From: an uncultured delta proteobacterium
GTDB taxonomy: Bacteria; Desulfobacterota; Binatia; UBA9968
Direction of reading: 5' to 3'
Length of the DNA: 64,000 nucleotides
Assembly: GCA_963745835.1 (NCBI GenBank)
Contig: CAVUZH010000013.1
Coordinates: 416,001-480,000, forward strand
Every line of letters begins with the position of its first letter. Positions within the stretch are counted from its first letter, which is position 1. A program made the translations under genes and the position numbers. The notes beneath the pieces were generated by a model. The model was not told the origin of the DNA. It worked only from the letters and a program-made list of their open reading frames with translations, and searched no databases. Below, piece by piece: positions 5,850-54,205 of the stretch.

Positions 5850-7189
5850 AGCAACCAAAGCAGAAGTTTAGCATGATCAGCTTAGGATGCGCCCGCAATC
5901 TCGTCGATTCGGAAGTGATGTCCGGACTACTCGTCCAGGATCATTATGAAATGGTTCAGGAACCGGCCGAGGCGGATGTCGTGTTGATCAATACATGCGG
6001 CTTTATCGATGCCGCTAAAGCGGAGTCGATAGACACAATCGTCGAGATTTCCCGACTCAAGCAAGAAGGAGCGCTGCGCAGGCTTGTGGTTGCGGGGTGT
6101 CTGTCGCAACGGTACCCGCAAGAGTTAGCAACCGAATTGCCTGAGGTCGATTTATTTATAGGCACAGGGGAAATTCCGCGTATAGTCGATATTCTTAGAG
6201 AACATGAACGAAATCAAAGCCGCAGACACTACGTCGGCATTCCCGAGTACCTATACGACCATGTAACACCCCGGCTTCGCCATACTCCGTCTTACACTGC
6301 GTTTGTAAAGGTCTCTGAAGGATGCGACCACAAGTGCGCCTTCTGTATCATTCCTAAGTTGCGCGGCCCACATCGTAGCCGCAGCATTGAATCCGTGGTC
6401 AAAGAAGCCACTATGCTGGCCCAAAGCGGTGTCAAGGAGATTAATCTTATCGCCCAGGATCTCACCGCGTACGGCAGAGATCGCAAAGACGGGACGACTC
6501 TCTACGGTCTGTTAAAAGAGCTGGTTCATGTGCCCGATCTCGTATGGATACGGCTACTCTATGCTTATCCCAATTTTCTTGACTCGCCGCTGCTTGATCT
6601 GATCGATACGAGCGAAAAAATTTGCAAGTACATCGATATCCCTTTCCAGCATGTCAGCGCCGGTATCTTGAAGAGCATGCGCCGAGGCAAAAGCGGCAGT
6701 GCTGTACAGGCTACCGTAGAAAAGCTGCGTGAATCCATTTCTGGTTTGACCCTTCGAAGCTCGCTGATTGTCGGGTTTCCCGGAGAAACCGAAGAGGATT
6801 TTCAAGCGCTGCTCGATTTCGTTGAAAGGACCAGATTCGAACGTCTCGGCGTCTTCAAGTATTCAATCGAAGAAGGCACCGCCGCAGCAAGTCTTGCCGA
6901 TCAGGTCGACGAAGAAGAGAAAGAACGACGCTGGCAAGAGGTGATGGATCTGCAAGCAAGCATCTCGCGAAACAAGAATGAGGCCTTGATTGGGTCTATT
7001 CAGCGGGTTATCATCGATGGCATCGACGAAACCGGGCAGTTGATCGGACGCACACAAGGTCATGCGCCGGAGGTCGACGGCGCTGTATACTTGCAAAACC
7101 CAGCTTCCCTTGAAACCGGCGATTTTGCCGACGTAAAGATAACCGAAGCTCTTGAGTATGACTTAATTGGTGAAATACAACATGTCTAA
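5846..7189 (+). CDS. rimO: ribosomal protein S12 methylthiotransferase RimO
   Basis: SLGCARNLVDSE, INTCGFI, radical SAM CDHKCAFC, C-terminal TRAM domain (APEVDG). Confidence 0.93.
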   Translation: MKQPKQKFSMISLGCARNLVDSEVMSGLLVQDHYEMVQEPAEADVVLINTCGFIDAAKAESIDTIVEISRLKQEGALRRLVVAGCLSQRYPQELATELPEVDLFIGTGEIPRIVDILREHERNQSRRHYVGIPEYLYDHVTPRLRHTPSYTAFVKVSEGCDHKCAFCIIPKLRGPHRSRSIESVVKEATMLAQSGVKEINLIAQDLTAYGRDRKDGTTLYGLLKELVHVPDLVWIRLLYAYPNFLDSPLLDLIDTSEKICKYIDIPFQHVSAGILKSMRRGKSGSAVQATVEKLRESISGLTLRSSLIVGFPGETEEDFQALLDFVERTRFERLGVFKYSIEEGTAAASLADQVDEEEKERRWQEVMDLQASISRNKNEALIGSIQRVIIDGIDETGQLIGRTQGHAPEVDGAVYLQNPASLETGDFADVKITEALEYDLIGEIQHV

Positions 7190-7640
7190 ATCGGAAAGTC
7201 TCAAAGACGCAAAAGCCAGAAAAGATTTCCTCAAAAGCGCGGCGGAAACTTTGCTGGAAATGAAGAAGCAGCTTCATAGAGAAATGCAGGTTCGGGTCAA
7301 AGGCGAGACCGAAGCTGTTAAGGATGAGGGTCGCGACACCTATGATCTAGCTAGCGATGAACGGGATCGGGAAATCAATTTTATTCTCAATGATCGAGAA
7401 CGGGAGAAACTGCACGCGATTGACGAAGCCCTCGAGCGCATCAAAGACAAAAGCTACGGCATCTGCGAGAGTTGCGAAGGCGAGATCCAACTAGGACGCT
7501 TGAAAGTGCTGCCCTTTACAAGACTTTGCGTGAGGTGTCAGGAAGAGAACGAGAAGGAAAGCAAACGTCAGAAAACGCTTGAGGAAGAGCGAGGCTACCG
7601 AAAACTTGTTCTGACTGACTTCGAAGAAGAAGGCTCTTAG
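7182..7640 (+). CDS. dksA: DksA/TraR C4-type zinc finger transcription factor
   Basis: DTYDLA (DxxDxA) coiled-coil tip; CESC...RL...P...CVRC zinc finger. Confidence 0.85.
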   Translation: MSKSESLKDAKARKDFLKSAAETLLEMKKQLHREMQVRVKGETEAVKDEGRDTYDLASDERDREINFILNDREREKLHAIDEALERIKDKSYGICESCEGEIQLGRLKVLPFTRLCVRCQEENEKESKRQKTLEEERGYRKLVLTDFEEEGS

Positions 7641-7689: not shown

Positions 7690-7728
7690 AAAAAAAGAGG
7701 GCATGGTTTGGAACCATGCCCTCTTTTT
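7690..7728. terminator. bidirectional rho-independent terminator
   Basis: AAAAAAGAGGGCATGGTT-TGG-AACCATGCCCTCTTTTT: perfect hairpin with A/T tails between convergent genes. Confidence 0.85.
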
Positions 7729-7745: not shown

Positions 7746-8132
7746 TCAATCGCCGCCCTTTGCAGGGGTAAACTCGATCCCGCTAACGTAATTTTTTTCG
7801 CCTTTTTTCGTATATTGCACCGTTGCCGATGACCCTAAACCGATATCGGCCATCTTTGCATCCTTAGCCTTAAGTTCGGTAACTTTGGTCTTCTGATCGA
7901 AATCAACTGTGACCAACTTGCCTTCCTTGGTGACCACGATCATATAGTTCTTTTCAGTATCCAATAAGCCTATATCGCCGGAAACTTTTTCCGCTTTGGC
8001 TTTCTCAGCCTTTTCACCTTCGGCTTTCTTTGCGCCTTCTGCCTTCTTCTCACCTTCCTGCGCCAAAATTGGCGAGGCCAATGAGAGTGCGCACAGAATA
8101 CTTAGAGCCCGCACTGCGCTTTGTGTCTTCAT
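7746..8132 (-). CDS. exported small OB-fold-like protein (DUF5666/DUF1344-like), soluble paralog 1
   Basis: Sec signal peptide (…PILA|QE), K/E/A-rich linker, domain GDIGLLDTEKNY…DIGLGSSATVQY…KGGD shared with three neighbours. The fold is inferred from the sequence pattern. Confidence 0.75.
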   Translation of the reverse strand: MKTQSAVRALSILCALSLASPILAQEGEKKAEGAKKAEGEKAEKAKAEKVSGDIGLLDTEKNYMIVVTKEGKLVTVDFDQKTKVTELKAKDAKMADIGLGSSATVQYTKKGEKNYVSGIEFTPAKGGD

Positions 8133-8185
8133 AAAATCGATCCTTTCCAATCATATATTACACAGACCGTAAGAGTTGCAGTGGC

Positions 8186-8644
8186 TCAATCCCCACCCTT
8201 GGCTGGGGTGAATTCCACGCTTTTGGCGAGATTTTTATCGCCCTGCTTGGTATATTCAACTGTTGCTGAAGAGCCGAGTCCGATATCCGCTATCTTGCTC
8301 GGAGTAGGATCGATTTGAGTCGCTTTCGTCTTGGCATCGTAATCCAGCGTGATCAGCTTACCTTCTTTAGTTACTAGGATCAGATAATTTTTCTCGGTAT
8401 CGAGTAATCCGATATCGCCTCTCGCCTTCTCTGCCTTCGCCTTGGCTTCACTCTTATCGTCGCCTTTGGCTTCGCCCTTTGCCGTAGTAGTTTCAGCTTT
8501 CGCCTTGGACTCAGCTTTTGCCGGCGGCGCCGCAGGTGCCGCCGCGGGCTTGGAAGCCATGTCGTCTTGTGTTGAACAAGAAGAGATAGCAAAAGCTACC
8601 GCAACCGCCGCCGCAGCACTACTGATCGAAAACAAATCCTTCAT
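8186..8644 (-). CDS. lipoprotein with OB-fold-like domain, lipid-anchored paralog 1
   Basis: Lipobox-like ISS|C-STQ, Ala/Pro/Lys-rich tether, same C-terminal domain ending AKGGD; AGGGAGG RBS. Confidence 0.78.
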   Translation of the reverse strand: MKDLFSISSAAAAVAVAFAISSCSTQDDMASKPAAAPAAPPAKAESKAKAETTTAKGEAKGDDKSEAKAKAEKARGDIGLLDTEKNYLILVTKEGKLITLDYDAKTKATQIDPTPSKIADIGLGSSATVEYTKQGDKNLAKSVEFTPAKGGD

Positions 8645-8767
8645 TGTTGCCTCCCTAGAACATATTTACGGTAAAAATAGATTCGATAATTATCGTGAGC
8701 GTTGATTCATCTCAATACGAAATAGGTATGGTTTTAATCGCGCCGATCCGGCTTGCTGGCGATAAAT

Positions 8768-8783
8768 TCAAACTATAGTCTTA
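8768..8783. promoter_or_regulatory. putative response-regulator binding site TCAAACTATAGTCTTA
   Basis: Palindromic core ACTATAGT in the divergent intergenic region; matches sites at 11799 and 14074. Confidence 0.4.
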
Positions 8784-8876
8784 GGACGACACGGGTGGGA
8801 TTACCACGTTGGCATGTTAGTTTATTTCGTGTATTTTCGCTTGGCGTAGGCAAATGTTCCCTAAGGAGCGAGTGCA

Positions 8877-9581
8877 ATGATGCCGATCAAAGTTGTGATT
8901 GCTGATGACCACGCGCTTTTCAGAGATGGACTCAGACGGATCCTTTCGCTCGAGAAGGACATCCTTGTCGTTGGCGAGGCAGCCAACGGTGACGATGTGA
9001 TCAAAGTCGTCGAGCGGACAAAGCCGGATATCTTGCTCCTGGATCTGAAGATGCCCAAGGGCGATGTTGTTCAAAATTTGCTGGAAGTCGGCGCTAAATA
9101 CCCGTCAACGCGGGTAATCATTTTGACCGCCTTCTCGGACGAGGAAAGTGTTTTGAATGCGGCGAAAGGCGGCGCCAAAGGTTTCGTTCCAAAGGGCGTG
9201 CCCTCCACTAGCTTGCTTCAAGCAATCAAGGCGGTGCACCAAGGCGCTTCTTGGACCGATAAGGAGATACCGTCATGGGAAACTTTCGAGGAGATTGCTC
9301 AGGGCCAGTCACTTGCCCGTGAAGCGCCGACTCAGTTCGATGAGAGTATTAGAAGTCTTACTAAACGAGAAATGGAAATACTCCGGTTAGTGGCCGAAGG
9401 TCTTACTAATGAGGAGATCGGCAAGAAAATTTTTATTAGTGAGAAGACGGTGAAGACTCACCTGACCAATATCTTCGATAAGTTGAAAGTTAATAACCGC
9501 TTCAAGGCTGCTCTGATGCTGATGGGCCAGTCAGGTGACACTAATACAGGGAATTGGAGTAGAAGCGGTCGAGGCCGTTAA
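8877..9581 (+). CDS. NarL/LuxR-family two-component response regulator
   Basis: REC domain (IADDH…LLDLKMP), LuxR HTH (LTKREMEILRLVAEGLTNEEIGKKIFISEKTVKTH). Confidence 0.93.
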   Translation: MMPIKVVIADDHALFRDGLRRILSLEKDILVVGEAANGDDVIKVVERTKPDILLLDLKMPKGDVVQNLLEVGAKYPSTRVIILTAFSDEESVLNAAKGGAKGFVPKGVPSTSLLQAIKAVHQGASWTDKEIPSWETFEEIAQGQSLAREAPTQFDESIRSLTKREMEILRLVAEGLTNEEIGKKIFISEKTVKTHLTNIFDKLKVNNRFKAALMLMGQSGDTNTGNWSRSGRGR

Positions 9582-9602
9582 ACGATCTCGAACTTCAAAA
9601 CA

Positions 9603-10859
9603 ATGTCTCGTGCCACGCCCTCCACAGGGGATACCATTACTCCCGAGGAAGGATGGCTCTTACAACGAGAGAAACTCTTGGCTTGGCTCCGGGTGGCTTT
9701 CGCCATCGTTGCCGTAGTCGTCATACAGCTTAACCCTTCGCGCACGGCGCGCTTTCCGACACTTTCAGTTTTTTCCCTGTGGTCCTTCTTAGCCTATAGC
9801 CTATTTGTTTTAGAGTTAGTTCGGCGGCAAAAGGTAGCCTCCAAGAAGATTGGGATCATTACCGCTTGCTTTGATTCGGTATGGATTTTTTTGATCGTGT
9901 TTTCCACCGGTGGTACCCGAACGCCATTCTTTTTCTATTTCGCGTTCCCGATCCTCTCTGCAAGCCTACGCTGGGGAACCAAAGGAAGCGTCTTCGTCGC
10001 CTTGGTCGGGGTTACTCTCTATGGTTTGATCCGCTTTAGTATGGCTGCGGAAAGCTTTGAGACGCCGATGGGCATCGACACCTTGCTCGTGCGCAGCCTC
10101 TATCTCATCGTTCTAGCCTATATCTTTGGTTTTGTCAGCGAATTTGAGAAGAGGCAGAACCGAAGGCTGCTCGCGCTCTCCGACACAGCCATCAAGGCTG
10201 CGGCGATTCAGGAGAGGCGCAGAATCACATACGAACTCCACGATGGCATTCTGCAATCTCTAGCGACGATTATCCTCAGACTTGAAAGCTGCCGCAGCCG
10301 GCTTATCGACTCTCAAAAAGAGTTGCGCCGGGAAATCGAAGACATCGAAAATTTCACCAGAGACTCAATGACGGAAATCAGGAATTTTCTGGCCGGCAAA
10401 GAGACCCAGCCGTTAACCCCGGGAACGCTGATAGAAAAGCTTCGAGACGAACTGAAATTCCTCCAACAAAGCTTGGGATTGGAAGTCATCCTCGAGAGTA
10501 AACCAGAGGACCCGAGTCTGCCGCATCACATCGAGCGCGAGGTCTATTACGCTCTAAGGGAAGCATTGACCAACGTGACCAAACACTCGCATGCTTCTCG
10601 GGTTGAGATTCAAATCAGCCAGGGGCCAGACCTGCTCGAGGCTTCGCTGAAGGACAACGGTGTGGGATTTGATCAAGACAACCAGAAAAACCGCAGCCGA
10701 CTGGGTTTGTCGGGCATGGGAGACAGAATAAAAAAGATCGGGGGACAACTAAGCATAAAGTCATCCCCCGGTTTAGGGACTACGGTTATGTTCGCAATCC
10801 CCCTGGTTGAAACAAAAAAATCTATCGAAGGGTCAATCGAAACATTGTCAGACAATTAA
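9603..10859 (+). CDS. membrane sensor histidine kinase (HisKA_3 type)
   Basis: Multi-TM N-terminus with no large periplasmic loop, ERRRITYELHDGILQSL H-box, EALTNVTKH, DNGVGF, GLSGM. Confidence 0.92.
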   Translation: MSRATPSTGDTITPEEGWLLQREKLLAWLRVAFAIVAVVVIQLNPSRTARFPTLSVFSLWSFLAYSLFVLELVRRQKVASKKIGIITACFDSVWIFLIVFSTGGTRTPFFFYFAFPILSASLRWGTKGSVFVALVGVTLYGLIRFSMAAESFETPMGIDTLLVRSLYLIVLAYIFGFVSEFEKRQNRRLLALSDTAIKAAAIQERRRITYELHDGILQSLATIILRLESCRSRLIDSQKELRREIEDIENFTRDSMTEIRNFLAGKETQPLTPGTLIEKLRDELKFLQQSLGLEVILESKPEDPSLPHHIEREVYYALREALTNVTKHSHASRVEIQISQGPDLLEASLKDNGVGFDQDNQKNRSRLGLSGMGDRIKKIGGQLSIKSSPGLGTTVMFAIPLVETKKSIEGSIETLSDN

Positions 10860-10941
10860 ATAAACGGGCGCGAACTCGTGACTCACTTGGACTTGCGCAA
10901 GAACTTATTCAAGGGAGAAACCAGCCAATCTTTCTCGGTAC

Positions 10942-11307
10942 TTAATCCCCACCCTTCTTAACTACGTACTCAATGCCACTGAGATAGTTTTTGTCACCTT
11001 TCTTGGTGTATTGGACCGAAGCCGCCGAACCTAGGCCGACATCCGCCATCTTCGCAGGCTTCGGCACCAGCTGTGTAACCTTGGTCTTTTCGTTGAAGTC
11101 CACTGTCACCAACTTGCCGTCTTTGGTAACGACAATCATATAGTTCTTCTCGGTATCCAATAGCCCGATATCGCCCGCAACCTTTTCGGCCTTAGCTTTT
11201 TCTGTCTTGCCCTTTTCTGCATTCTTTTCCTGGGCCGCTATGGGAAACGCGACAATTAACACTATGAAAATTCCCAAACCAAACATGCTCTTCGATCCAA
11301 GTCTCAT
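10942..11307 (-). CDS. exported small OB-fold-like protein, soluble paralog 2
   Basis: Signal peptide (…PIAA|QE), domain nearly identical to 7746..8132, ends KKGGD; GGAGGAGG RBS. Confidence 0.75.
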   Translation of the reverse strand: MRLGSKSMFGLGIFIVLIVAFPIAAQEKNAEKGKTEKAKAEKVAGDIGLLDTEKNYMIVVTKDGKLVTVDFNEKTKVTQLVPKPAKMADVGLGSAASVQYTKKGDKNYLSGIEYVVKKGGD

Positions 11308-11340
11308 AAAATCCTCCTCCTTCGCTCGTTCACACGATGA

Positions 11341-11779
11341 TTAATCGCCACCTTTGGCGGCTTTGAATTCGACCCCGGTGGCGATATTCTTGTCTTTCTG
11401 TTTTGTATATGTGACCGTCGCTGACGAGCCGAGACCTACATCCGCGATCTTAGCGGGGGTTGGAGTCACTTCCGTCACTTTGGTTTTTTGATCGAAATCC
11501 AACGTGACCAGCTTGCCTTCTTTGGTCACGAGAATCAGATAGTTCTTCTCGGTATCGATGAGGCCAATATCTCCTTTAGCTTTTTCGGCCTTAACTTTAG
11601 CCTCAGCCTTTGCCTCGTTTTTGGTTCCGTTATCCGTCTTAGCTGCTGCAGCTTTGGCTGTAGGTGGAACGGGGCGTTGTCGTTGGTTTGGCTACCCGCT
11701 CTTCTTGAGTTGAGCACGATGCCAGAGCTAACAGCATAGCCCAGGCGGTGACTCCAGTTACCGGAAACACACTTTTCAT
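11341..11779 (-). CDS. lipoprotein with OB-fold-like domain, lipid-anchored paralog 2 (apparent +1 frameshift at 11671-11674)
   Basis: MKSVFPVTGVTAWAMLLALAS|CSTQEE… from ATG 11779 with GGAGG RBS. Removing one G from the G4 run (439 = 438+1 nt) joins it to …EKAKGDIGLIDTEKNYLIL…AAKGGD. Confidence 0.72.
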
Positions 11780-11798
11780 CTTTCTATCCTCCCGTTTG

Positions 11799-11860
11799 TC
11801 AGACTAAAGTCGAATGAGTAAACCATTAGTCGTATACTTTACGATGTGATGCCTTGTCAA
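11799..11860 (-). promoter_or_regulatory. sigma70-like promoter (TTGACA-N18-TATACG) with downstream operator-like site TCAGACTAAAGTCGAA
   Basis: Perfect -35 at 11855-11860 (minus strand), -10-like element at 11831-11836, motif at 11799-11814. Confidence 0.45.
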
Positions 11861-12114
11861 GCGATTAAGGTAAACTCTAAGGAATTTTCGCGACGTCCGA
11901 GCGCGGCAAGCGCCGGGCCTAGGCTACGGGCGGAAATGTGAGCTGGCTTACGTTTAAACCAGACGACGATGGGGATGGGCGATGAATGTTAGTTCGACAG
12001 TTTGACGCGGCACCGAAGTCTCGGCTTCTTGCGATCTGCTTTAAAAGTTTACTCAGGATCTTCGCCTATAAGCCAGGGCTCTTCTCGGTTCGAAAAAGCG
12101 TATAGACAGGCAGC

Positions 12115-12408
12115 TCAAAATGGAGGCTTTTTTTCGCAACAGTTAGGATGCCCAGGGCCTTGGCCGGCCCAGGCACCGATCTCAATCGCGTCTAGCGGCT
12201 CGATGAAGAAGGGAATGGGATCGACGTCGGGATTGTTGTCCAAAATTTCATCGCGAATGTTTTGATAAATTTGTTGATCTCTTTTGCCTCTGTCGATGAA
12301 CTGCAGGCGGTACCCGTCGGACGCGCTTGATACCATGGACAACAGCAGCGAGATTACCAGCTGTTTGAAATAATTAGCAAATGTGCCGCCGGCATCATTT
12401 TGAGACAC
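12115..12408 (-). CDS. small hypothetical protein (start uncertain)
   Basis: 97-aa ORF with protein-like acidic composition, directly after the porin terminator; no recognisable family. Confidence 0.3.
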   Translation of the reverse strand: MSQNDAGGTFANYFKQLVISLLLSMVSSASDGYRLQFIDRGKRDQQIYQNIRDEILDNNPDVDPIPFFIEPLDAIEIGAWAGQGPGHPNCCEKKPPF

Positions 12409-12441
12409 AAAAAAGGGGAGTCATTTCTGACTCCCCTTTTT
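12409..12441. terminator. rho-independent terminator of the porin gene
   Basis: AAAAAAGGGGAGTCA-TTTC-TGACTCCCCTTTTT hairpin about 20 nt after the porin stop. Confidence 0.85.
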
Positions 12442-12462
12442 CGTTGCGAGCGGTTACACGTC

Positions 12463-13990
12463 CTAGAACGTGTAGCGCCAGTTTAGGAACAGTGTCTGCC
12501 AGTCGCCGCCTTTACCGTTTCTGCAACCAGTAGCAGGGGTAACATTCGGCGTATTGCAAACTCCGAGATTATGCGCGGCCTGGTTGGCCCCGTTACGCAA
12601 GTTCGACGCATCGTACCACAGCCAGTTGACACCGATGCTCATGCGCGGCGCCAGAAAGTACCACAGATCCACTTCCCGCAGGAGGATCCTGTTGCGGTGA
12701 AATTGATTCAGCATCGCATTTCCGCCCGCAGCCACGACGCTGGCGCAGGTGATCCCGGTATTGCCATTACAACCCGCTTCCATGTCAACGCGCTCGAAGT
12801 GGGTGCCGACTAGAATCGATCCCGCGGTATTGGCAGAGCCTGTCAGGAAACCCTTGGGGCTCCACAGAAAGAGATCATGACCGATCAACCAGCTGTCACC
12901 TTTCTTATGTCCTCGCGTTCCGCCCCGGTCTTCACTTCTCTGGCGATGCGCCATGGCGCGCAACGTATAGGGACCGATGTTCCAGATAAAGCCGGGGGTT
13001 AGGCCGATATGAAGCCCATCGCCAATGGAGCCGGCGCCAGTATCAAACAATGCCTGGCGACCGCCATCGCCATGATCCTGAATGCGGTAGCGGTCGCAGC
13101 CATTATCAATTGCCCTATTATCGGCGTTACAGAACCACGCGCCCATTTCAAAGGCCAGGCCGCGGAGCCAGACGCTTTTAAGTTGCGAGAAGGGCTGAAT
13201 ATTAAGGTAAGCATTAAAGTCCTTGCGATCGGTAAAGCTGCTCAAGCCGTCGTCACCCTCACCGATATTGCCCATGCCAAGGTTGAAACGGCTGATCCGG
13301 CCGGGAATGCCGATGCCCGACAGTGACCTGTCGTCCCAGAAGAGTGAGATACCATTGCCGGTGCGGCCGGTGTTGAAACCGTTGTTGCGCGTATGCAAAT
13401 CATATTCAGCCTGCGAGCCCATTGCGCTGGACCCCTGGCGCGCGGTGCTCATGCTGTTCTGGACCTCCATGCCCAGCTGCACCGTCGGCAAAAATGGATT
13501 CAGGTTTTCGAGATGGAAATTAATAACGCCACGCTGCAATATGGAACCGACATCGTCACCGGTGGCATTCTTCGCATTGCCCGTGCCGAAACCATCCATA
13601 TCAATAGTGGCCTCGAGCTCCCACAAGCAGTTGTTGATGCAGAAGAAGAACCCCGGCCGGAAACGGCGGCCCATGATCTCGCCGTTGGTGCGCCCTACAT
13701 GACTGCGTCCTTCTTCGAAAAGCATCCGAAAATAAGTTTCCAACGGTTGCACGGAAAGACCATGACTTGTCCGCGGCTTCGATATCGAGACCGTTACCCG
13801 GGCGATAACTAAAAGTCGGCATCGCTGCTGCCGCTTCAGTTGCCTCCTTCTTCAATTCGATCTGCTGCTCTTTTAACTGCATCAGCTCTTGCTCAAGCGC
13901 TTGGATCTTTTGATCCACATTTTGCGCAAGGGCGGGGACAGCCAAAAGAAATGCAGAGAGCATTCCCAAGCCCAAAAACGTCTTCTTCAT
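12463..13990 (-). CDS. outer-membrane beta-barrel porin, OprO/OprP-like architecture (apparent +1 frameshift at 13745-13746)
   Basis: Signal peptide and short coiled coil (MKKTFLG…AQNVDQKIQALEQEL) in one frame; amphipathic strands ending …FLNWRYTF (C-terminal Phe) in another. 1528 = 1527+1 nt, so one-base removal gives ~508 aa. Confidence 0.75.
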
Positions 13991-14047
13991 TTTACCTCCT
14001 TTTGCCTCCTGGTTTTTGTGGTACATCGTTAGTACTACTGACCGCGA

Positions 14048-14089
14048 CTTTTAACTTACTCACCAAACCCTGTCAAGCCTAAAGTTGTA
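14048..14089 (-). promoter_or_regulatory. sigma70-like porin promoter (TTGACA-N17-TAAAAG) with overlapping site CAAGCCTAAAGTTGTA
   Basis: -35 at 14071-14076 and -10 at 14048-14053 on the minus strand; motif 14074-14089 overlaps the -35. Confidence 0.5.
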
Positions 14090-14314
14090 CTTTAGCGAAT
14101 GCCGTAGGTCAGTGATTAATACATAAGTAGTTAATTGGCAGTATAGGTCGGAGGCCACGATCCGCAGTCGGCTCGGGCCAAAGCTTTAGGTCTCCAGTCG
14201 CCTGCGGAATCGCTCCGGGGGCTGAGACATAGGATTGTCCTGACTCACGGCTATTCAACATCTATTTTTTTAACGCGTTGAGATTTCATTACCTGCCGGT
14301 TAGAGTCGGCTAGT

Positions 14315-15070
14315 ATGCTGGCCAAAAGAATCATCCCCTGTCTGGATGTGAATGAAGGAAGAGTTGTCAAAGGCGTGAACTTTTTGGAACTTCGCGACGC
14401 CGGAGATCCGGTTGAGATTGCCCGTCAGTACGACAAAGAAGGAGCAGATGAACTTTGCTTTCTCGATATAACGGCGTCGCACCAACAGCGAAGAATCATC
14501 CTCGATGTCGTCGCGCGAACTGCCGAACAGGTTTTCATGCCTCTCACCGTTGGCGGTGGGATCAACTCCTTGGAAGATATTCGCAATTTGTTACATGCCG
14601 GCGCCGATAAGGTTTCGATCAACACGGGAGCAGTCAATCGTCCGGAATTTGTTCGAGAGGCGGCGGAAGTATTCGGCAGCCAGTGCATCGTCGTTGCCAT
14701 TGATGCCAAGCGGGTTGACGATCATTGGGAGGTCTTCACTCACGGCGGAAGGAACCCCACAGGATTGGATGCCAGTGAGTGGGCCGAGCGGATGGAAAAA
14801 TTCGGCGCAGGAGAGATTCTTCTTACCAGCATGGACCGCGACGGCACCAAAGCCGGTTACGATCTTGGCTTGACCCGGGCGATTTCAGACCGTCTGTCGA
14901 TTCCCGTGATCGCCTCGGGCGGCGTAGGAAACTTGGATCACATTTACCAGGGATTTGCCGAGGGAAATGCCAGCGCGGCGTTAGCCGCCTCAATCTTTCA
15001 CTACCGGGAATACTCAGTGGGAGAATGCAAGAAGTATTTGCGCAGCCGCGGCATTCCCGTGCGGCTATGA
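14315..15070 (+). CDS. hisF: imidazole glycerol phosphate synthase cyclase subunit
   Basis: [53 protein letters not shown]. Confidence 0.97.
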
Positions 15071-15192: not shown

Positions 15193-15564
15193 CTAGTCCA
15201 GAGCAAGAATGAAATAGCCAATTATCGCGATCCCAAACACTGCTAGGAGCACATTAGTATATGCGCCTATATTGACCCAGTATCCCTCTGGAATTTCAAC
15301 CGGCTTGAGAGTCTTTAGCACGCTTCGGTACTGAAGCACGGAAAGCACGGCCACCACGACGCCAAAGAGAATGAAAGAAGCACCTACCCAGAATGATCCG
15401 TTTCGCCGCACATGATCGCCTTGAGCTAAAAGGAACATGTGCAGAAAAAGCCCGAAGCGCTCAATGGCAAACCCAAAGGCCATCAATGCAACCGCCGTAC
15501 GCGTCCACGCCATTAGAGTGCGTTCAGCGGCGAAGAACACTCTCGGATCATTCAAGTCGGACAT
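15193..15564 (-). CDS. DUF202/YidH-family inner-membrane protein
   Basis: DPRVFFAAERTLMAWTRT motif, three TM helices. Confidence 0.85.
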   Translation of the reverse strand: MSDLNDPRVFFAAERTLMAWTRTAVALMAFGFAIERFGLFLHMFLLAQGDHVRRNGSFWVGASFILFGVVVAVLSVLQYRSVLKTLKPVEIPEGYWVNIGAYTNVLLAVFGIAIIGYFILALD

Positions 15565-53109: not shown

Positions 53110-54096
53110 TCACTGATAGGCTACTGATTGTGGTATTTCCCAATAGTACAACGTGTGCACGTCGCCCGCTCCATCACGATAGGATTCGGTAATCTTCGGC
53201 GGCCAATTGCCCATGTCGAAAGTGTACGAAACGACGCGCGCGCCGGGCTGAAGTTGGCGCATTAGAATCGGCTTGAGCGCTTGATTGCCGTCATGAGAGA
53301 GATACAAGGTCACTATGCTGGCTAACGCCAAATCGGCCGTCATGAAATTCTGATGGCGGACTTCCACCAGCTGCTCTAGATTTTCTTGCTTGATCTTCTC
53401 ACGGGCCATTTTTACCAAGCCCGGATCCACCTCAAAACCTACTGCTTTGATTCGATATTTTTTTGCTGCGGCGATCAACACCCGGCCATCGCCGGAGCCA
53501 AGATCATATAGGAGATCGCCAGCTTTTATCCCGGCGAGCGCTAACAGCCGGTCCACAACTTCGTACGGCGTGGGATCGAAAGGCGCCAGTTGTTCGGGAA
53601 GCGTTCTTACAGAAGGTCGCTCCAACAATGGGGCGGGAGCAAAATCCTCTCCCGGAAGACTGGGCACAACCGAGGTAGTCCGTGAATCAGATGAGCTCGG
53701 AACCTCGATGATTGACACTCCGGGGTGGTAGGAGCGGTATGCGTATGGACCAAACCATGGAACATACGGATAGGGGTGATAATAAATAAACGGCGGGTAA
53801 AATCGTTTGGCAACTACTCGCCCCGGCAAGATAAACCGGACCAACGGTGGGCGCCCAAAGTGAGCGCCACCGACACCCGGACTCGGAATAAAAACCCGAT
53901 GCCCCGTGAGTGAACCATCGAGCCGGCCCAATCTCGGCCTTACGGCGGAAGTGGCTCCGGATCTAACAAAACCGCTGAAGCCGCGGCCAGCCCCACGATT
54001 GCCGCGGATGCCTTGGCTCCAAGCCTGATCCGGGGTCAATAAGAATACAGCGAGAATAAACGCCACAACGTGCATTCTGTTGAATCTTAGGAGCAC
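53110..54096 (-). CDS. class I SAM-dependent methyltransferase with signal peptide and low-complexity N-terminus
   Basis: PFDPTP, YDLGSGDGR, VTLYL, GARVVS. Confidence 0.8.
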   Translation of the reverse strand: MLLRFNRMHVVAFILAVFLLTPDQAWSQGIRGNRGAGRGFSGFVRSGATSAVRPRLGRLDGSLTGHRVFIPSPGVGGAHFGRPPLVRFILPGRVVAKRFYPPFIYYHPYPYVPWFGPYAYRSYHPGVSIIEVPSSSDSRTTSVVPSLPGEDFAPAPLLERPSVRTLPEQLAPFDPTPYEVVDRLLALAGIKAGDLLYDLGSGDGRVLIAAAKKYRIKAVGFEVDPGLVKMAREKIKQENLEQLVEVRHQNFMTADLALASIVTLYLSHDGNQALKPILMRQLQPGARVVSYTFDMGNWPPKITESYRDGAGDVHTLYYWEIPQSVAYQ

Positions 54097-54205
54097 TCAT
54101 TAGCGTAAGTCAACTAGCTCAACAGGCGGCGGGTTTGGTCCATAAATCCGAATAGATTTTTCGCGACCCGCGCCTTAACCTCGAGGTATAGAGGCGGTGC
54201 TATCC

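Follow-up and report, generated by a model that had tools for sequence, protein, structure and literature searches.

Positions 7,746 to 14,090 of the DNA stretch analyzed here (the window: 64,000 nucleotides of contig CAVUZH010000013.1, from an uncultured member of the Binatia; coordinates given without a contig name refer to it) carry a cassette in which a two-component system (TCS) lies between two pairs of genes for small secreted proteins, with the gene of a putative outer-membrane porin next to them. We propose, with a probability slightly above one half (about 0.55), that this cassette is a lineage-specific circuit for envelope stress or envelope homeostasis in Binatia, in which the response regulator would act through a 16-bp palindrome, TAAGACTTAAGTCTTA, that recurs upstream of its own gene, of one of the two gene pairs and of porin genes. 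The type of circuit is familiar and ordinary; its parts are undescribed, and its regulon is unusually compact and testable, with a single kinase and regulator, a predicted operator of 16 bp and few targets, all of them envelope proteins. Two of the protein families concerned, the small periplasmic domain and the Cys-paired outer-membrane protein, have no database model. Binatia are abundant, uncultured bacteria of soil and sediment, and we know of no account of how they keep their envelope intact.

The initial annotation of the window had described this block as a self-contained envelope module, with four paralogs ending in KGGD arranged as two lipoprotein-then-soluble pairs, a response regulator and a HisKA_3 kinase between them, and a Cys-paired porin just upstream. 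All of these genes are found at the positions given there, B2 being broken in this assembly, and Pfam matches and coordinates agree for the regulator and kinase. The module itself holds in part: the regulator, the B pair and the porin share a box, pointing to a regulon, whereas the porin has its own terminator and is not a constant member.

Two gene pairs encoding an undescribed domain

The four proteins, A1 and A2 on one side of the TCS and B1 and B2 on the other, share a C-terminal domain of 80 aa that is 69-79% identical between copies, has 44 of its 80 columns invariant and always ends in KGGD. The source genome (7.28 Mb) contains no copies of the domain beyond these four. All four genes are on the minus strand. 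A2 (8186..8644, 152 aa, domain at 8189-8428) is a lipoprotein with the lipobox ISS/C and an Ala/Pro/Lys/Glu-rich linker, and is followed by A1 (7746..8132, 128 aa, domain at 7749-7988), which has an ordinary signal peptide. The A1 open reading frame (ORF) extends to 8150, and its start was placed at the ATG at 8132, residue 7 of the ORF, which matches the ESM Atlas record and the 128-aa homologs. On the other side, B2 (11341..11779, domain at 11344-11583) likewise carries a lipobox and B1 (10942..11307, 121 aa, domain at 10945-11184) an ordinary signal peptide.

The pairing recurs in related genomes, where at least 54 two-gene pairs have the lipoprotein first and the soluble protein second. 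With a crude lipobox pattern, four pairs read as two soluble proteins and one as two lipoproteins, and a reduced clade retains one gene per side, the B-side gene coding for a lipoprotein and the A-side gene for a soluble protein. In a quick tree, the soluble type (58 rows) stands apart from the lipoprotein type (62 rows), with SH-like approximate likelihood ratio (SH-aLRT) supports of 96 and 95, respectively, and A and B copies are mixed inside each type. Since the tree splits by type and not by side, the division into tethered and free proteins is old, and the two pairs have been homogenised or re-duplicated. The two types also differ in the spacer that precedes the domain, which has a median length of 43.5 aa in the lipoproteins (Ala 34%, Lys 19%, Pro 14%, Glu 12%) and of 19 aa in the soluble proteins (Lys 35%, Glu 24%, Ala 23%). 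Lipoboxes most often occur in the context CSTQEEM. Across 137 sequences, conservation reaches 90% or more at about 26 of the 80 domain positions.

None of the four paralogs has a Pfam match at E up to 1, nor an NCBIfam match, and a profile of the 137 sequences finds nothing in the PDB. The hidden Markov model (HMM) check that had been suggested for the domain thus leads to no characterised family. The family is numerous and narrow, because a word-indexed search gives at least 7143 matches at E up to 0.001 among 8000 candidates scored, and an exhaustive search of 50%-identity representatives gives 93 matches, of which 13 have E values of 1e-30 or less. Among the matches listed, none has a Pfam domain, and the few names are "hypothetical" or Binatia. 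Within the taxonomic family of the source genome, 21 of 24 genomes carry the domain (19 of 22 if the unpublished genomes G012 and G018 are left aside), and none of 16 genomes from two sister families does. Of 300 other genomes sampled from the phylum, 10 have a match: G015, which belongs to the family itself, G076, and eight marginal ones at 5e-5 or weaker. The 59 genome loci that we collected come mostly from metagenome-assembled genomes labelled "Candidatus Binatia" or "delta proteobacterium". As far as these searches reach, the cassette is confined to one Binatia family. The sole clear homolog outside it, in G076 (135 aa, E 1.3e-16; locus L064, G076:C161, 1582-5118, minus strand), lies directly 5' of genes for an OEP outer-membrane factor and a HlyD/CusB-type adaptor, and cusF has the same placement in cusCFBA.

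The two-component system

The response regulator (8877..9581, plus strand, 234 aa) consists of a receiver and a GerE/LuxR helix-turn-helix (Response_reg 1e-22, GerE 6.8e-23), which places it in the NarL/LuxR class. The histidine kinase (9603..10859, plus strand, 418 aa) matches HisKA_3 (PF07730, 4.7e-12) and HATPase_c (PF02518, 1.1e-12). Its hydropathy profile shows five clear and one weak hydrophobic helix within residues 25-178 and no loop longer than 28 aa, from which it follows that the kinase lacks a periplasmic domain, in line with the many-helix kinase first described. The best NCBIfam scores are far under their cut-offs (MadR 167.7 of 300 bits, MacS 91.6 of 300 bits). No named system or family model in Pfam, NCBIfam or the PDB profile search fits the cassette, which had also not been recognised at first as a named system.

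A shared palindrome at the promoters

We aligned the 200 nt 5' of the lipoprotein genes (32 A-side and 28 B-side regions) and observed a conserved 16-bp palindrome, the box with the consensus given above, once in the intergenic region between the regulator and A2 and twice between a conserved -35 element, CGCTTGACAA, and the ribosome-binding site of B2. When sites with at most two mismatches at 10 core positions are counted, at least one is present in 31 of 31 A-side and 27 of 28 B-side regions, and 25 of the 28 B-side regions have two or more. The 66 upstream regions together hold 97 sites, whereas shuffled sequence yields 5.75 on average and 12 at most, and the rest of the loci (602,701 bases) has sites at the chance rate.

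For scoring, a position weight matrix (PWM) was built without the window's own sites. Box 1 (8768..8783, minus strand TAAGACTATAGTTTGA, PWM 14.0) lies in the divergent intergenic region about 102 nt 5' of the regulator ATG; Box 2 (11799-11814, PWM 13.6) and Box 3 (11819-11834, PWM 12.7) both lie between the -35 TTGACA (11855-11860) and the B2 ribosome-binding site. The porin promoter (14071..14090, minus strand) has a further box-like site, TACAACTTTAGGCTTG (14075-14090, PWM 11.7), which overlaps its -35 TTGACA (14071-14076). The same sequence is found in L006, L026 and L051, and variants of it in L043, L046, L047 and L050. In L047 and L050, the porin promoter and its box occur in tandem duplicate, two TACGACTTnAGnCTTGAC copies lying about 90 nt apart within 200 nt 5' of the start.

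Beyond the window, the boxes concentrate at the same kinds of genes. Across 142 loci (891,906 b), 237 positions reach 12 bits, of which 229 fall in four places, namely the regulator/A intergenic region (80), the region 5' of the B pair (132), the Pal-like gene described below (13) and the adjacent porin gene (4), and eight fall elsewhere. Those of the regulator/A intergenic region are as a rule 102-111 nt from the regulator start. Among 22 porin-family genes of other family genomes, 15 have a box of at least 12 bits, and 12 one of at least 14 bits, within 360 nt, compared to 0.1% of 2000 random windows of the source genome; the 22 are the genes with enough upstream sequence once G012, G018, the window loci and one duplicate row had been set aside. 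In the source genome, 73 positions in 7.28 Mb reach 11 bits, three of them in the cassette, and the top one (20.5 bits) lies 184 nt 5' of a second copy of the porin gene on contig C19. The second-best box, TAAGACTCCGGTCGTA (17.0 bits, G000:C25:54317), lies 118 nt 5' of a 146-aa ORF (53759-54199, minus strand) that is followed by a 123-aa ORF with a hydrophobic N-terminus; these two ORFs may be further members of the regulon.

The box resembles operators bound by regulators of the same class. Its consensus agrees at 12 of 14 specified positions with the CesR motif TCAGHCTnnAGDCTGA, and LiaR-type regulators bind 16-bp inverted repeats, both according to an excerpt of one report (PMC4447274).

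A simple promoter scan lists a promoter for the regulator-kinase operon (TTGGCA-17-TATTTT, 8809..8837, plus strand) and one for A2-A1 (TTGAGA-18-AATTAT, 8686..8715, minus strand), both also marked by the alignment; it lists none for the B pair, where the -10 region is occupied by Box 3. The A2 promoter is part of a conserved block, ATACCTAnnnCGTATTGAGA-N12-CACGATAA (8686-8735, minus strand), with more than 70% conservation across 32 orthologous regions. The block is unique in the genome and does not resemble the box of the regulator, which suggests a second regulator or an unusual promoter. We considered an extracytoplasmic-function (ECF) type regulon for this block and rejected it, as the block occurs once in the genome with one weak look-alike.

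Conservation of the neighbourhood

The proteins of the window were mapped by tblastn onto the 59 related genome loci. The recurring order is lolA-rimO-dksA, a pair, regulator-kinase, a pair, a variable interval, and hisF; in L043-L047, dksA is replaced. The kinase and/or regulator stand beside the domain genes in 47 of the 59 loci, ten loci are cut off no more than 460 nt from the first domain gene, too early to tell, and two, L054 and L061, have complete hisF-dksA intervals without a TCS. L028 retains the regulator only. A separate scan of metagenomes gave 80 loci, and all 30 of those with at least 3.5 kb represent the same cassette, with the kinase and/or regulator visible in 29 and one locus cut off. 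The neighbourhood survey that the initial annotation had called for thus bears out the association of the domain genes with the TCS.

The porin fares differently. Of the 24 loci that reach hisF, 7 have the porin gene, 12 a gene for a Pal-like lipoprotein with an OmpA domain (PF00691 match of 1.7e-20; there is none in this window), 4 both and 9 neither. The porin as a constant partner of the domain genes, which had been part of the original idea, is contradicted by these counts.

The putative porin and a lost lipoprotein gene

The porin gene (12463..13990, minus strand) encodes about 509 aa, with a signal peptide, a coiled-coil-like N-terminal stretch, the C-terminal residues WRYTF and eight Cys in four close pairs, which are conserved in an intact ortholog of 513 aa (L050:1951-3489). 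Neither the pieces in the window nor this ortholog have a Pfam match, PF07396 (OprO/OprP) included, and an HMM search finds no PF07396 in the source genome under conditions in which control genomes score. Against the PDB, the best single-sequence match (E 0.019, 100 residues of a CarO-type protein) is noise, and a 22-member profile finds nothing. In ESM Atlas, the feature likeness to OprO/OprP clusters is 0.97, with 27 of 30 matches in PF07396 clusters. The signal peptide, the C-terminal WRYTF and this language-model likeness make a porin a reasonable inference. Of the Cys-paired porin first described, the gene, its position, its strand and its eight paired Cys are thus confirmed, and its identity as a porin finds no support by HMM or in the PDB. 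At least 1014 relatives exist, all unnamed.

An intrinsic terminator (12407..12444, minus strand) with a 17-bp stem and a T run follows the gene. It is a strong one (-31.2 kcal/mol, z -6.7), indicating that the porin gene is its own transcription unit and not co-transcribed with the B pair. The two are separated by 680 bp that contain a gene relic in two frames (12027..12276, minus strand), all that is left of a gene for a 478-aa lipoprotein and covering its C-terminal ~85 aa. In several lineages this gene, which has an internal repeat and no Pfam family, lies between the porin gene or hisF and the Pal-like gene, and it is full length in L120, L073, L095, L054, L040, L059, L068 and L057. The lineage of the window has lost both the 478-aa lipoprotein gene and the Pal-like gene. 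A 97-aa ORF at 12115-12408 was dismissed as a gene, as it starts within the porin terminator and belongs to the two-frame relic.

The porin family extends beyond the cassette: 20 of 30 other family genomes (18 of 28 without G012 and G018) have one to four porin-family genes, mostly on contigs that do not carry the cassette. The second copy in the source genome is in three pieces in this assembly (G000:C19:89221-90734, minus strand; box at C19:90903). About 1 kb 5' of it, on the opposite strand, is an ORF for a BamD-like tetratricopeptide-repeat lipoprotein, a name given from sequence only.

Predicted fold of the domain and remote relatives

The confidence of the AlphaFold (AF2) model of the domain, as predicted local distance difference test (pLDDT), rises from 57.6 with four sequences to 91.5 with 137. 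The model has five strands, with a long loop between strands 3 and 4. In a Foldseek search of solved structures the best match is CusF (E 0.45, TM 0.36), and a full VIA structure search with the model reaches Z 2.0. When realigned, CusF covers residues 1-38, the first three strands, only (Z 2.2, root-mean-square deviation 1.8 A). Either the last hairpin of the model packs in an unusual way or the protein may be an oligomer; searches of this kind that end without a match do not establish a new fold.

Remote relatives provide further links. Of 28 distant representatives, 10 reach the cut-off of DUF5666 and 4 that of CusF_Ec. With hhalign, a relative with two domains gives 96.5% for its first domain, its other domain reaching 35.2 bits against CusF_Ec (cut-off 27), and a five-repeat DUF5666 protein gives 45%. 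The ESM Atlas language-model likeness to a DUF5666 cluster is 0.93. CusF and DUF5666 belong to the OB clan of Pfam, and they resemble our domain as modelled in having five strands, a small size and a similar length, in addition to the profile links via multi-repeat relatives. Unlike them, it has no direct HMM match and no metal ligands, and superposes on CusF with its first three strands only. The metal site of CusF is built from Met, His and Trp; a site of this type can be ruled out here, since 111 aligned domains contain 2 His, 0 Cys and 0 Trp in total, and their Met positions are unconserved between the two protein types. Of the OB-fold-like structure proposed initially, a confident five-strand model is obtained, but no solved fold matches the model as a whole, the links to DUF5666 and CusF_Ec are remote, and the OB fold stays putative.

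Proposed circuit

The conservation and position of the palindrome suggest that it is bound by the regulator of the cassette. The box about 102 nt 5' of the regulator gene would then mediate autoregulation, and the two boxes of the B pair, which follow its -35 and precede its ribosome-binding site as a repressor site might, would lead to repression of that pair. Where a box covers part of the -35 of the adjacent porin gene, or is placed 5' of it, it may modulate the porin, and boxes 5' of porin-family and Pal-like genes elsewhere would define a wider regulon of envelope proteins. The outputs would comprise a lipoprotein that carries the five-strand beta domain on a flexible spacer, a free periplasmic copy of this domain and a Cys-rich outer-membrane channel. 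By analogy with the TCS-controlled OB-fold proteins SipA, YgiW and YdeI of gamma-proteobacteria, which bind toxic peptides as they enter and contact OmpA or porins, the beta-domain proteins are most likely periplasmic binders or chaperones at the outer membrane; the handling of a ligand, proposed in the initial annotation, is likewise putative. If so, the SipA/YdeI theme would reach a distant phylum through an unrelated sequence family.

Several observations weigh against this circuit. The sites used for the PWM were chosen by their likeness to a consensus read off the alignment, which makes the core columns partly circular. The boxes of the window are degenerate, ranking 14, 18 and 33 genome-wide, and because each deviates at two core positions, the window has no exact match to TANGACNNNNGTCNTA. 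At 12 bits, 7 of the 22 porin-family genes have no box, and the identity of the porin is itself unproven from sequence. The promoter block of the A pair differs from the regulator box, leaving control of the A pair only putative. Most of the loci belong to kin that inherited the arrangement, and the counts do not represent independent events. No solved structure fits the whole domain model (best Z 2.2), and by HMM (Pfam, E up to 1) the domain is not a member of BOF/YgiW, CusF (PF11604) or DUF5666 (PF18914). No gene for a LiaF/VraT-like membrane inhibitor is found among ORFs of at least 60 aa between dksA and hisF, the rest of the genome not having been searched. Finally, the stretch is contained in 20 of the 24 sequencing runs listed, all of them DNA.

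Alternative explanations

The main rival, which we consider unlikely, is that the beta-domain proteins are part of the sensor, a copy tethered to the outer membrane on a long spacer and a free copy contacting the short periplasmic loops of the kinase and setting its activity; their flanking position would then reflect co-inheritance of a three- or four-part sensor. Parallels are NlpE and CpxP with CpxA, QseG with QseE, and LiaF or LiaX with LiaS. A kinase without its own periplasmic domain would need an accessory protein for periplasmic signals, and the A pair is transcribed away from the regulator-kinase operon, in the arrangement of cpxP and cpxRA. The reduced clade still keeps one lipoprotein and one soluble protein, the lipoprotein spacers are long, and the high conservation of about a third of the domain would fit a fixed protein partner. 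Kinases driven by accessory lipoproteins are described in the portions available of two reports (PMC6075780, PMC12691602), and LiaF is a negative regulator according to part of another (PMC3543457). Nevertheless, the boxes at the B-pair promoter suggest that these genes are at least also targets, and L054 and L061 keep the domain genes with no adjacent kinase. Proteins acting as co-sensors would show how a kinase that lacks a periplasmic domain reads a diderm periplasm. Distinctly more doubtful is a role of the pairs as a periplasmic gauge for this kinase, in which the copy anchored to the outer membrane on its ~44-residue spacer and the free copy as its competitor would report envelope spacing or the state of the outer membrane and porin. 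The kinase would in turn switch between the A and B isoform pairs, since boxes in repressor position mark the B promoter and another element the A promoter, and would retune the porin and Pal-like genes; the missing whole-fold match might in this case result from a strand-swapped hetero-dimer. A gauge of this kind would represent a new principle of sensing, built on a protein family that is undescribed.

We give little credence to the view that the cassette is no functional unit, its genes being co-inherited neighbours and the palindrome serving an unrelated regulator or forming a hairpin in leader RNA. Palindromes in 5' leaders can indeed fold as RNA, and almost all of the loci come from relatives that share synteny from lolA-rimO-dksA to hisF, so that co-occurrence is not independent. 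However, the core persists while the flanks vary, and the box at the regulator is 5' of the promoter, outside any leader, at a constant distance of ~102 nt in 80 loci; boxes also precede porin genes on other contigs and resemble the operator of the regulator's own class. The least probable explanation, to our mind, is that the proteins are CusF-like carriers of metal or another cation for a channel or efflux pump, with the TCS as a metal sensor. The distant relatives that reach the DUF5666 and CusF_Ec cut-offs, the superposition of residues 1-38 on CusF and the cusCFBA-like surroundings of the G076 homolog would agree with such carriers, which have against them the lack of a CusF-type site in the 111 domains, the lack of a CusF_Ec Pfam match at E up to 1 and the absence of a transporter gene from the cassette.

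Comparison with known systems

Under the proposed envelope circuit, the cassette can be compared to LiaFSR, CesSR and VraSR of Firmicutes. They have in common a HisKA_3 membrane-sensing kinase with a regulator of the NarL/LuxR class, a near-identical 16-bp inverted-repeat operator 5' of their own operon and of the targets (predicted from sequence in our case), and a small local regulon of envelope proteins. In contrast to these systems, the host is a diderm. The Binatia kinase has 5-6 helices, whereas LiaS has two, and in place of LiaIH-type proteins its outputs would be pairs of lipoprotein and soluble beta-domain proteins in the periplasm, together with outer-membrane proteins. In CpxAR-CpxP and ZraSR-ZraP, the gene of a periplasmic protein is divergent from the TCS operon, and a beta-domain protein could, by analogy, be both an output and a feedback modulator. 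The kinase and regulator classes of those systems differ from those of the cassette, and the periplasmic fold is unrelated.

For the small proteins, SipA would be the closest functional parallel, although membership in the BOF family is not found. With SipA, and with YgiW/VisP and YdeI of Salmonella, the cassette proteins would share the features of a small, secreted, beta-barrel-type protein that is controlled by a TCS and works with an outer-membrane protein; unlike BOF proteins, they occur as lipoprotein and soluble pairs on both sides of the sensor genes. In Vibrio cholerae, SipA is described, in sections of two reports, as a TCS-dependent periplasmic protein that binds antimicrobial peptides and interacts with OmpA (PMC6370654, PMC5636140). 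The literature on TCSs and lipoproteins of Binatia, on DUF5666 and on histidine kinases of Binatota yielded no description of the cassette, and none of the DUF5666 papers deals with function as judged by their entries.

Source assembly, frame breaks and flanking genes

The source assembly comprises 7.28 Mb in 25 contigs, with 97.1% completeness and 9.33% contamination; congeneric genomes have 3.9-5.5 Mb. Single-base frame breaks are seen in at least three genes of the assembly, B2 and both porin copies. The source bin may be mixed and its consensus imperfect.

In B2, the frame changes by one base near a run of C (11671-11674), which leaves the signal peptide and lipobox in the frame 11639-11803 and the domain in the frame 11341-11691. 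The orthologs of L006 and L024, from the same genus, are unbroken (144 aa). Contigs from other runs are too diverged to decide on this break: one diverged X1 contig is a base short at 11676 and another at 11680, and the X6 contig that covers it has a net loss of 4 bases. The porin ORF is likewise in two frames, with the change near 13742-13744. There, X2 and X6 contigs, from two other public runs, have one base fewer at 13742 or 13744, joining the frames as ...SFRATVETYFRMLFEEG... The porin of L006 is also broken, at a different position in the gene, and porin matches are fragmented in several other long-contig assemblies. We regard consensus errors as the probable cause of both breaks, and do not take B2 and the porin gene for pseudogenes.

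The housekeeping genes named at first on either side of the block are confirmed. A dksA/traR zinc-finger gene (7167-7640, plus strand, by Pfam) lies tail-to-tail with A1 and shares with it a terminator-like hairpin with a 17-bp stem (7692..7728, minus strand), located 3' of A1. At the other end, hisF (14315-15070, plus strand) is assigned by its His_biosynth match in Pfam. Beyond hisF and outside the cassette lies the gene of a DUF202 membrane protein (15193-15564, minus strand).

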